A DNA stretch of 19,401 bases from an uncultured archaeon. Lineage in GTDB: Archaea > Asgardarchaeota > Jordiarchaeia > Jordiarchaeales > Jordiarchaeaceae. Positions 11,249 through 18,977 of this stretch are shown here, piece by piece; within the stretch, counting starts at the first letter, position 1; every line of letters begins with the position of its first letter. The notes beneath the pieces were generated by a model. It saw only the letters and a program-made list of their open reading frames with translations, was not told the origin of the DNA and did not search any database. The stretch lies in contig CAZECW010000169.1 in assembly GCA_964510585.1 (NCBI GenBank), positions 1 through 19,401 on the forward strand, written 5' to 3'. A program made the translations under genes and the position numbers.

Positions 11249-12217
11249 CTATCCTATCTCCCTCTTTAGACGCTCCATTATCTCCTTTGCCCCATTCACC
11301 ATTTCGTCTATGACTTCTTTTACTGTAAGGATTTTGTCTATTCTCCCCACAGCCATACCTAAGGAAAGTATTCCGGCATCGATGTCCCCTTCTTCCCAAG
11401 CTTTCTTGCCCAGTTGACCACTTATTACTGGAAGGACTTCCTCAAGCGTAGCGCCCCTGGCCTCCATCTGCTGAGCTGTTAGTGCTGGCTTGTTCTTTAT
11501 AACTCGGGAGGCGAGTTTAAAGGGTTTCCCTATGATGGTGGTGTCGCTGTCTTTGGCGTTCACAATCCATTCTTTAATCTTGGGGTGCACGTTACACTCC
11601 TTGGTGGCCACGAAGCGTGTTCCCATAACCACGCCCTCTGCACCTAGGGCTAGGGCGGCGACGAAGCTTCTTGAATCGCATATGCCTCCCCCTGCACAAA
11701 CTGGAATTTTTACGGCGTCAACAGTTTCTGGAATTAGTATTAGGGAGGTTACATCATCGAGTCCCGGATGTCCTCCGCACTCGAATCCCACAACAGTTAC
11801 CGCGTCGCATCCTATTCTTTCTGCGGTTTTGGCGTATCTGACCCCTGCAACCTTGTGTATTATCTTTATGCCTGCTTCCTTTATTCGGGGAAGGTACTGT
11901 TCGGGACTCGTTCCCGAGGACTCAATTATTGGTACGCCTTCATCTATGAAGAGTTCAATGTCCTTATCTAAGCCTCTGGGTCTCATGGCGGGAAAAAGAT
12001 TTAGATTCACTCCAAAAGGTTTTTTTGTTAGTTCTCTGGTTCTCTGAATCTCCATACGTAAATCTTCGGGATTCTCAAAAGTTGTTGCAGCAAGGATTCC
12101 AAGGCCGCCCGCATTCGAAATGGCTGCAACGAGTTCAGCCCTGGAAAGATTGTGCATAGCTCCGCCAATAATGGGATACTTAATACCAAAAAGTTCAGTA
12201 ATTCTGGTCTTAAACAT
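11249..12217 (-). CDS. Nitronate monooxygenase / FabK-like FMN-dependent oxidoreductase
   Basis: MFKTRITELFGIKYPIIGGAM, GLGIL, GFECGGHPG, AGGI, ALGAEGVVMGTRF; ATG at 12217 preceded by GGTGG. Confidence 0.88.
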   Translation of the reverse strand: MFKTRITELFGIKYPIIGGAMHNLSRAELVAAISNAGGLGILAATTFENPEDLRMEIQRTRELTKKPFGVNLNLFPAMRPRGLDKDIELFIDEGVPIIESSGTSPEQYLPRIKEAGIKIIHKVAGVRYAKTAERIGCDAVTVVGFECGGHPGLDDVTSLILIPETVDAVKIPVCAGGGICDSRSFVAALALGAEGVVMGTRFVATKECNVHPKIKEWIVNAKDSDTTIIGKPFKLASRVIKNKPALTAQQMEARGATLEEVLPVISGQLGKKAWEEGDIDAGILSLGMAVGRIDKILTVKEVIDEMVNGAKEIMERLKREIG

Positions 12218-12337
12218 TTTAAACCACCTTACATTCAAATATTTGATAGAATTACAACTATGTCTCATATATTCTTATTGATAAAAAATAGGCTACCCCT
12301 TTTAAATCCAGAATTTTTTAGTAGTGGAAAAAGGGAA

Positions 12338-12515
12338 TTGACACTCTCCGCGACTAAAGTCGGGAGATTCTTGCTTCTGGCTCATCGGGAGCCTTCGAAG
12401 CAATGGGTGTGCCATCACCCAGTTAACACGCCCTTCCCTTAAGGGAACGGCGTCTATGTTGGCACCCTCATGGGGGCTGCGTCTTGTTTAGCCTCTTAAG
12501 CCCAAGCCAAACCCT
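12338..12515 (-). ncRNA. Putative TnpB omegaRNA (reRNA) scaffold; predicted guide is the flank 12337-12318; 5' end approximate
   Basis: Hairpins at 12428-12453, 12404-12421 and 12371-12403 plus the right-end hairpin, ending at TCAA; TATA-like motifs upstream. Function inferred from position and structure. Confidence 0.55.
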
Positions 12516-12530
12516 TCAGCTACCAACAAC

Positions 12531-12563
12531 TATTTATATACCATACTTTCAAATAAACTTTCT
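12531..12563 (-). promoter_or_regulatory. Candidate BRE/TATA promoter(s) inside the mini element, directed toward the right end
   Basis: AGAAAGTTTATTT (12563-12551) and TATATAAATA (12540-12531) on the minus strand. Confidence 0.45.
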
Positions 12564-12612
12564 GGCGATTCATCCCCACGACTAAAGTCGGGGGCTTTCT
12601 CACCAAGGTTTT

Positions 12613-12920
12613 GTAACAAGAGATTTTGGTGCTTCCTTAGCTACTCTTCTGGTTATAACTCCAGTTGCACCTGCAAGCAAACTCTCTCCCTTCGTTGCAC
12701 CATAAACCCAAGCATCCTGCGAGGGATATTTTTCCACCAAACTTAGTAAGGCGCTTTCCAATTCGTCTACCGTATTGCATTTTCTATCTAGCTGGAATTT
12801 TTCCTGAGCATACCTGCTGGCATGCTCCAAAAAGAGTTTCAACACTGCGGGAGAAGTCAGTGGTTCATACCGATACGCATCGGCAATAGCTCTAACTATC
12901 CTCTCATTTCCAACAGGCAT
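12613..12920 (-). pseudogene. Hypothetical protein gene interrupted by the mini element; remaining 3' part at 12337-12265
   Basis: ATG at 12920 with GGGGTG RBS and TTTATATA upstream; ORF runs into the element at GTT AC|A AAA CCT TGG TGA; removing the element gives a 126-aa ORF. Confidence 0.7.
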
Positions 12921-13375
12921 ATTTTGCACCCCTTCCTGTCGTACGTTGGCAAACAAGTATATAAAATATATGTAATAAATTTTTTCCAAATAATAATTAT
13001 AAGTTTTATCCTAATTGTTTTTGGAGAGAGTGAATGTGTTGGTAGTGAATTTCCCCTCTTCTTTGTCTTTAGAGGCGAAGCATTTATAGGATTCCCTCTC
13101 GAGAGCCTCAAAATGAGATTTTTAGTGTTGGGCGCAGTATAGCCCTTCCTTTTTTTAAACAATGCTCCGTTGCGCTTGTTGTATGTTTGTAATTTGCCTT
13201 TTAGTCCCCTCAGTATTCTCTCTGTTTCCCCCTCTTTATTATATAAATGTGTTAACTAGGGGGTGAAAATGGATATCTTCAAGTCTGGCATAGAAACAAT
13301 TTATACGAATATGATTGTCGCCCGATTGTGGCGTGTGGTGTGGACTAGTTTAAAAGAGAACAGTTTTTTGGTTTT

Positions 13376-18310: not shown

Positions 18311-18489
18311 ATGAGTGAACTTAAAATCACTAATTCGGGGATAAATTTTCTGGATAATTTGTTGGGTGATGGATTCTTATCCAATTCTATTATTGTTATT
18401 TCACACCAGCCAGGCTCTAAAATTCGCCATCTAGGACTACAGATAGGATTAAACAAGTTCAATGAAAAGTTTCACCTGATCAACGTTAC
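18311..18489 (+). pseudogene. 5' part of a RAD55/KaiC-like (RecA-fold) gene interrupted by the IS
   Basis: SGINFLDNLLGDGFLSNSIIVISHQPGS resembles the TGIxxLDxLLGGG...GxPGSGKT N-terminus; frame enters the IS at AAC GTT AC|A. Confidence 0.7.
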
Positions 18490-18587
18490 AAAACCGTTGG
18501 CGGGAAAGCCCCCGACTTCAAGTCGTGGGGATGAATCGCCAAAAAGCTTATAGGCTGGTATATTGATAGATTTATGGTTATCAATAG

Positions 18588-18977
18588 ATGGAATACAGAC
18601 ATTCTCGAAACCAAGTCTATCCCATCAACTACCACCTCGTCTGGCGCCCCAAGCGCAGAAAGCCAGTCCTCGTAAACGAGGTAAAAATGCGGCTGGAGCA
18701 AATCCTGAGAGAAGCAGCAAAGGAGAAGGACGTGGAAATCCCGGCGCTAGAAGCGCAACCAGACCACCTTCACCTGTTCATGTCTGCATATCCCCAACTT
18801 CCAGCCCACAAGCTCGTCAAGGCATTCAAGGGCCACTCGTCTCACCACTTAAGAAGGGAGCTCCCCCACCTGCTTAAGCTTCCGTCACTTTGGACGAACT
18901 CATACCTCTTTTCGACAGCGGAGAACATGTCGAACAAAACCATTCAGAAATACATCGAAACGCAGTCGAGGCTGTGA
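18588..18977 (+). CDS. tnpA: IS200-type Y1 (HUH) transposase, possibly decaying
   Basis: NYHLVW.PK, PDHLHL (HUH), LWTNSY, KYIETQ (catalytic Tyr...Gln). Confidence 0.93.
   Translation: MEYRHSRNQVYPINYHLVWRPKRRKPVLVNEVKMRLEQILREAAKEKDVEIPALEAQPDHLHLFMSAYPQLPAHKLVKAFKGHSSHHLRRELPHLLKLPSLWTNSYLFSTAENMSNKTIQKYIETQSRL

Follow-up and report, generated by a model that had tools for sequence, protein, structure and literature searches.

The 275-bp segment at positions 12338 to 12612 of the window (the whole stretch of 19,401 nucleotides analyzed here) is very probably a copy of a high-copy, non-autonomous element of the IS200/IS605 type, a palindrome-associated transposable element (PATE), here called the mini element. 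The window corresponds to contig C169 of a draft genome of 3.78 Mb in 217 contigs. A neighboring pyruvate kinase was 94% identical to those of 2 Ca. Jordarchaeia MAGs, and DNA of the window was also present in hot-spring metagenomes of 3 studies. Judged by its sequence, the host is an Asgard archaeon from hot springs, related to Ca. Jordarchaeia.

The mini element was read on the minus strand, and its features are listed in Table 1. The left part reads ...CTTGTTAC / AAAACCTTGGTGAG-AAAG-CCCCCGAC TTTA GTCGTGGGG and the right part GAAT-CTCCCGAC TTTA GTCGCGGAG-AGTG-TCAA / TTCCCTTTTTCC, with the slash marking the border between the element and its flank. As single-stranded DNA, the left and right ends were predicted to fold into bulged hairpins with energies of -9.8 kcal/mol (z -2.84) and -7.2 kcal/mol (z -1.98), respectively. 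The anatomy claimed in an earlier note on this DNA (TTAC, AAAG with a hairpin, GAAT with a hairpin, and TCAA) was thus recovered in full at the expected positions. The 2 hairpins are direct rather than inverted copies of one motif, and the element has no terminal inverted repeats. The 275 bp are too short for a protein, in agreement with a non-coding element, and no Pfam match was obtained for any of the overlapping ORFs, including a 96-aa ORF on the plus strand (12152-12442) and a 129-aa ORF that stops 4 codons inside the left end.

Table 1. Features of the mini element, its flanks, and the full-length relative in the 19,401-nt window
Feature	Positions	Strand	Basis or remark
Protein-free mini element (PATE)	12338-12612	-	275 bp, left end to right end; self-match 100%
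TTAC, target and left cleavage site, presumed TnpB TAM	12613-12616	-	Sequence reading; matches IS608 CL (PMC5934647)
AAAG, left guide tetranucleotide, directly 5' of the left hairpin	12595-12598	-	Kept in the alignment of 29 copies
Left imperfect hairpin, CCCCCGAC-TTTA-GTCG(T)GGGG	12574-12594	-	DNA fold; stem is that of the full-length element at 18509-18530
TATA-like box, TATATAAATA, from upstream of tnpA; candidate archaeal promoter	12531-12540	-	Homology
OmegaRNA-like scaffold, tnpB 3'-end remnant and right end	12338-12512	-	175 nt; fold, homology, covariation
Stem TTGCTTC...GAAGCAA, immediately 5' of GAAT	12371-12403	-	Stem changes on both sides between families
GAAT, right guide tetranucleotide	12367-12370	-	Invariant across 15 related right ends
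Right imperfect hairpin, CTCCCGAC-TTTA-GTCG(C)GGAG	12346-12366	-	DNA fold and covariation (one pair, compensatory C-G to U-A)
TCAA, right cleavage site, final bases of the element	12338-12341	-	Present in 70 of 70 right ends
Right flank, TTCCCTTTTTCCACTACTAA, predicted guide of a read-through omegaRNA	12318-12337	-	TnpB/omegaRNA model (PMC10055086)
5' half of a conserved hypothetical gene, cut at TTAC	12600-12989	-	217 aa in G003; no Pfam family
Full-length IS605-family relative, cut by the contig end	18490-19401	+	Left end, tnpA 18588-18977, tnpB from 18980

The published signals of IS608 are CL TTAC, GL AAAG, GR GAAT, and CR TCAA (PMC5934647). The 4 tetranucleotides of the mini element are the same, as the earlier note had asserted for the Helicobacter pylori element, and both pairs follow the guide/cleavage rule (AAAG/TTAC and GAAT/TCAA). 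Given the genome-wide junction counts presented below, this agreement is far beyond chance. The mini element also shares with IS608 (ISHp608, the IS200/IS605 prototype from H. pylori) the subterminal imperfect hairpins, the lack of target duplication, and a distance of about 18 nt between TTAC and the foot of the left hairpin. In contrast, IS608 is about 1.8 kb long and carries tnpA and tnpB, both of which are missing from the 275-bp element, which furthermore has only 4 nt (AGTG) between the right hairpin and TCAA and resides in an Asgard host.

A blastn search with the mini element identified 29 full-length copies inside contigs of its own genome, including the reviewed copy. The other 28 were 90% to 98% identical to it, and the pairwise identities among the full copies averaged 94%, with a range from 85% to 98%. 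About 90 contig ends stopped 134 to 141 nt inside a copy, and the repeat is thus the cause of most of the breaks in the assembly. There were 77 distinct left junctions, of which 74 showed an exact TTAC, 2 a TTAC shifted by 1 nt, and 1 TCAC, while each of the 70 distinct right ends terminated in TCAA. The flanks of the copies all differed from one another. The earlier note had proposed a search for further copies with the same ends 3' of TTAC; this genome contains at least 70 copies at distinct TTAC sites, and they form a single homogeneous family. Reading frames were open over 180 nt in 31% of the left flanks and 46% of the right flanks, compared with about 70% at random TTAC sites, a depletion that is expected for insertions under purifying selection. 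A 28-mer specific to the mini element, taken from the fusion sequence, had no match in the public genomes of other species, a collection that excluded the genome studied here.

We noted that at 2 other loci an end of the mini-element type is joined to an unrelated interior: a left end of 98% identity at C166:7978-8172 and a right end of 100% identity at C136:4663-4838. They suggest the existence of a further non-autonomous derivative with different cargo. A different repeat of about 100 nt was observed just upstream of the PATE copy on contig C37 (L003:1345-1455). It had many matches of 75% to 90% identity across the congeners G001, G003, and G004 and is another small, dispersed repeat family.

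A trace of insertion was found at a sister copy located at C121:20824-21101, the flanks of which are contiguous in both G001 and G004, reading ...GAAGAACAAATTAC / AAACATC.... By comparison of these sequences, this locus is a precise empty site without a duplication in 2 congeners, in agreement with the earlier statement that such elements make no target duplication. The empty allele that had been predicted for the reviewed copy, CTTGTTAC / TTCCCTTTTTCC (CTTGTTACTTCCC...), was on the other hand absent from its own genome and from the relatives, and the reason is that the flanks of this copy come from 2 different ancestral TTAC sites, as described below. A 14-kb contig from a strain of about 97% identity covers the right flank up to position 12337 and then differs, which hints at an unoccupied site. 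The circle junction of right end and left end was absent from the own assembly, and no excision joints were found in the contigs of 3 metagenome runs, where contigs enter the element by 25 to 26 nt, less than the bridging threshold of 31 nt. The summed depth over the element was about 75-fold or more above that of the flanks, a value that is not to be read as a copy number. Overall, the comparative evidence supports the notion that the element can be mobilized in trans by TnpA.

Two other classes of small repeats were considered and rejected. A classical MITE does not fit, since the ends are not inverted repeats and the empty site of the sister copy has no target duplication. The REP/RAYT reading was dropped on account of the homology to the 3' end of tnpB and of the length of the element, which greatly exceeds that of a REP.

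The origin of the mini element was traced by comparison with full-length relatives. One of these lies in the window and is preceded by a TTAC at 18486-18489; positions 1 to 83 of the mini element were 81% identical to its left end. It encodes an intact-looking TnpA of 129 aa that matched the Pfam family Y1_Tnp with an E-value of 9e-35 and had the TnpA of ISHp608 as its best match among solved structures (E = 1.6e-28), in an alignment that matched both the HUH motif and the catalytic Tyr. The TATA-like sequence TATATTGATA, which is homologous to the box in the mini element, is located 29 nt upstream of the tnpA ATG, suggesting that the tnpA mRNA is leaderless. At the other side, positions of about 116 to 275, representing 60% of the mini element, aligned to the 3' end of tnpB and the right end of full elements on contigs C8, C54, C152, C45, and C81. 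Taken together, the homologies at both ends identify the mini element as a fusion of the left end and tnpA promoter region with the 3' end of tnpB and the right end. The earlier claim that tnpA and nearly all of tnpB were lost while every cis signal was kept is borne out by both end alignments. Its reading as a deletion holds for the derivation of the element but not as a one-off event, since the copy belongs to a large family.

Only 2 to 3 intact tnpA genes of this type were present in the assembly. An intact cognate tnpB was missing from the assembly, and the gene copy in the window is cut by the contig end. A search of public genomes for the donor lineage, using TnpA, retrieved only distant relatives of at most 73% identity (Dehalococcoidia and others). 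The element on contig C81 was the only assembled one with the same type of omegaRNA stem as the mini element. Located at C81:5072-6745 (L227:173-1846, minus strand), it consists of a single ORF of 557 aa in which a degenerate Y1 TnpA is fused to TnpB. The TnpA part has YIQ at the HUH motif and a scrambled N-terminal strand, while the RuvC-II Glu of the TnpB part appears to be replaced by Gly in what is a weak alignment. The ORF passes through the omegaRNA region and stops immediately beyond TCAA. This element has a right end and a stem 5' of GAAT like those of the mini element, but a different left hairpin.

The sister species G004 was found to contain a PATE family of its own, with copies of about 205 nt located after TTAC (loci L214 and L216 to L219, e.g. 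L216:80-285). These PATEs keep the same 4 modules (left end, TATA region, 3' part of the omegaRNA, and right end), with an omegaRNA part that is shorter than in the mini element. The formation of PATEs has thus recurred within the genus.

To examine the retained interior, the 175 nt from 12512 to 12338 were folded as RNA, which gave -80.1 kcal/mol as compared with -54.8 +/- 4.0 kcal/mol for shuffled sequences (z = -6.35). Covariation was analyzed in an alignment of 14 related right ends drawn from this family, the full elements, and the independent elements of G003 and G004. In the structure inferred by RNAalifold, 94% of the cells were paired, against 41% to 51% when the partners were slid, and compensatory changes were seen in 6 pairs, against 0 to 2 in the slid controls. 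The covariation score was reached by none of 500 shuffles; it is to be read as resting on about 3 lineages of related sequences. The stem 5' of GAAT, which was misaligned by MAFFT, is TTGCTTC/GAAGCAA in the mini family and in the C81 element, but TTGGAGG/CTTCCAA in the C8-type full elements and in the elements and PATEs of G004. The 2 variants differ at 4 positions on both sides, and the pairing has thus been kept. The strong fold and the compensatory changes together argue that the interior is an omegaRNA scaffold placed behind the old TATA box of tnpA. In terms of sequence, then, what the mini element retains is a predicted omegaRNA scaffold fused to the tnpA promoter, and not junk.

The scaffold derives from the 3' end of tnpB and the right end and terminates at TCAA, so that the flank supplies the predicted guide. 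The TATA-like box lies about 25 to 30 nt upstream of the first stem and is, by its motif, a candidate promoter; the scaffold may accordingly be expressed and bound by TnpB. A search of the region from 11800 to 13200 against the 4,227 covariance models of Rfam gave no hit at E <= 1. A scan for bacterial sigma-70 promoters and terminators also gave nothing, but these rules are bacterial and do not apply to an Asgard archaeon. One metatranscriptome contained a share of 0.14 of the words of the element, and no RNA datasets were listed among those matching the 1.4-kb stretch.

The flanks of the reviewed copy were found to be of mixed origin. At its left, the element interrupts a conserved hypothetical gene, and the truncated ORF of 129 aa ends in 4 codons provided by the element (T K P W), followed by a stop. 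The gene continues uninterrupted past the TTAC in G003, G004, and G001. Its 3' half is located on contig C160 in the genome studied here, beside the right end of another copy. The left flank in G003 (contig C14) reads CTTGTTAC / AAGCC..., and the right flank in the same genome (contig C145) reads CCCCCTTTAC / TCCCC..., with TTAC placed exactly at the junction in both cases. The region preceding the right flank in G003 (CCCCCTTTAC /) has its homolog on contig C96 of the host genome. The relatives lack the element at both flanks. As read from these comparisons, the 2 flanks of the reviewed copy stem from separate ancestral insertions, one having supplied the left flank and the other the right. 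A single inversion was rejected as the source of these flanks, because at least 3 loci (C169, C160, and C96) are permuted.

Among the other copies tested, 5 of 7 also had non-cognate flanks (C37, C193, C21, and C58, and less sharply C212), whereas the copies on C121 and C184 had cognate flanks. Including the reviewed copy, the flanks were non-cognate in 6 of 8 tested copies, a share that may be inflated, since mosaic copies are those that short reads can assemble. For the copies on C37 and C193, which were inspected at base level, the homologs of the right flank in the relatives have TTAC at the junction, or TTAT in one relative. We consider it fairly probable that the flanks were exchanged by homologous recombination between copies.

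A separate observation concerns C96:1-600 (L231), in the region homologous to the ancestral left flank of the reviewed copy. At the contig end, ...CCATTTTTAC is followed, without any element in between, by the sequence found after another TTAC 483 bp upstream, and the 119 nt at this place exactly duplicate C96:479-597. The arrangement could stem from a tandem duplication or from TnpA-type joining of 2 TTAC sites.

The main competitor of recombination is an artifact: the copy, or the joining of its flanks, could be an assembly chimera formed through the 275-bp repeat, with the left flank truly continuing into C160. Such an error would be in keeping with a draft of 217 contigs that is broken mostly at this very repeat, with the position of the 3' half of the interrupted gene next to another copy on C160, and with the surprisingly high share of non-cognate flanks (6 of 8). 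The linkage of the 2 flanks also rests on one short-read assembly, and no record spans the whole element. However, the longest exact match between the reviewed copy and any other assembled copy was 126 nt, shorter than the 134 to 141 nt that contigs run into a copy before they break, which implies that every k-mer on the path was unique to the reviewed copy. Moreover, each junction was recovered separately in other data: Logan contigs from 3 studies enter the element by 25 to 26 nt, and in a JGI contig, 121 nt of the element, including the A variant of the reviewed copy (in TTAAGGG), adjoin the same right flank. The latter was the one match to the right-junction 28-mer and begins inside the element, and it is therefore no test of the linkage between the flanks. 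The left-junction 30-mer had no match among the metagenome contigs. We rate misassembly as rather unlikely and favor recombination between copies, with some confidence, as the source of the flanks.

Two further readings concern the nature of the element itself. That a single IS605 insertion left behind a dead and immobile deletion product, amounting to ordinary decaying DNA, could be invoked for the lack of an excision product, of a circle junction, and of an empty allele for the exact flank pair, as well as for the few intact tnpA genes of this type that were assembled. This is highly improbable in view of the many copies (at least 70) that have intact ends at different TTAC sites, the precise empty site of the C121 copy in the congeners, the intact state of the 4 cis signals and both hairpins in the reviewed copy, and the relatives without the element at both flanks. 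A domesticated guide-RNA gene, serving a dead or active TnpB, or an outward promoter that regulates the nitronate-monooxygenase-family (NMO-family) gene, appears improbable as well: the guide would be whatever flank a copy landed beside, the flanks are all different, and the copies are depleted from coding sequence, as for a selfish insertion. The features that speak for domestication are the fusion of the TATA-like box to the scaffold and its orientation toward the NMO-family gene, which is on the same strand and begins about 120 nt downstream of the right flank at 12318-12337, the retention of the same modules in the independent PATE family of the sister species, and the possible lack of the RuvC-II Glu in the TnpB of C81.

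The reading that we prefer, a mobile PATE, can be put into a proposed sequence of events. An internal deletion in an IS608-type tnpA-tnpB element would have founded the family by joining the left end and the TATA box of tnpA to the last 170 nt or so, containing the omegaRNA scaffold and the right end. A Y1 TnpA acting in trans, for which there is a candidate gene 6 kb away in the window, would excise and insert the element as single-stranded DNA. AAAG would pair with TTAC and GAAT with TCAA, which would direct insertion 3' of TTAC without target duplication. It is about an even bet that an omegaRNA driven by the TATA box and carrying the right flank as its guide would direct a TnpB provided from elsewhere to cut the vacated TTAC site, after which recombination would restore the copy. 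The 2 flanks of the reviewed copy would have been brought together by homologous recombination between 2 copies. More tentatively, the copies might serve both as guide-RNA genes for TnpB, scattered over the genome and each with its own promoter, and as recombination substrates that have scrambled the Asgard chromosome. With 6 of 8 tested copies joining flanks of different ancestral TTAC sites, this would put the PATE-mediated rearrangements since the divergence from the congeners in the dozens, with TnpB cuts at vacated sites as a possible stimulus.

Elements of this class have been described before. The PATEs of Haloquadratum walsbyi are derived from IS605 elements by deletion of the core and occur in 177 to 194 copies of six families, with strain-specific insertions (PMC3119063). 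Like the mini element, they are protein-free, have palindromes near the termini, lack terminal inverted repeats and target duplications, and reach a high copy number in an archaeon. They differ in lineage and sequence, and the family described here is a single homogeneous one of at least 70 copies, the interior of which is a predicted omegaRNA scaffold behind a tnpA TATA box. Meers et al. reported that the PATE-like elements of Geobacillus stearothermophilus often encode omegaRNAs, which are used in trans by TnpB (PMC10055086). Those elements also have no protein genes and must be mobilized in trans by TnpA, but they are bacterial and present in several copies, and the activity of the family was shown experimentally, whereas the activity of the mini element is predicted from sequence. 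Closest in architecture and size is a PATE-like element of 271 nt in Halanaerobium hydrogeniformans, which lacks tnpA but retains a left hairpin, the terminal 58 nt of tnpB, and the complete right end (PMC7290912), and which is present in a single copy as compared with at least 70 here. Our literature search found no paper linking Jordarchaeia or Freyarchaeia with TnpB or PATEs. As the mechanism and the element class have already been described, the findings represent an extension rather than the discovery of a principle; the exchange of flanks is the one point that goes beyond the known picture.

According to a recent survey, Asgard genomes contain about 8.5 IS elements on average (PMC13343696). 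With its copy number of at least 70, the mini element dominates among the mobile elements of this Asgard genome, and it has been missed by annotation and IS-counting pipelines. For an archaeal TnpB system with TTAC as its TAM, the family amounts to a naturally occurring collection of at least 70 guide/target pairs. Should the exchanges of flanks prove real, PATEs would be a major driver of rearrangements in a lineage that is studied for eukaryogenesis.
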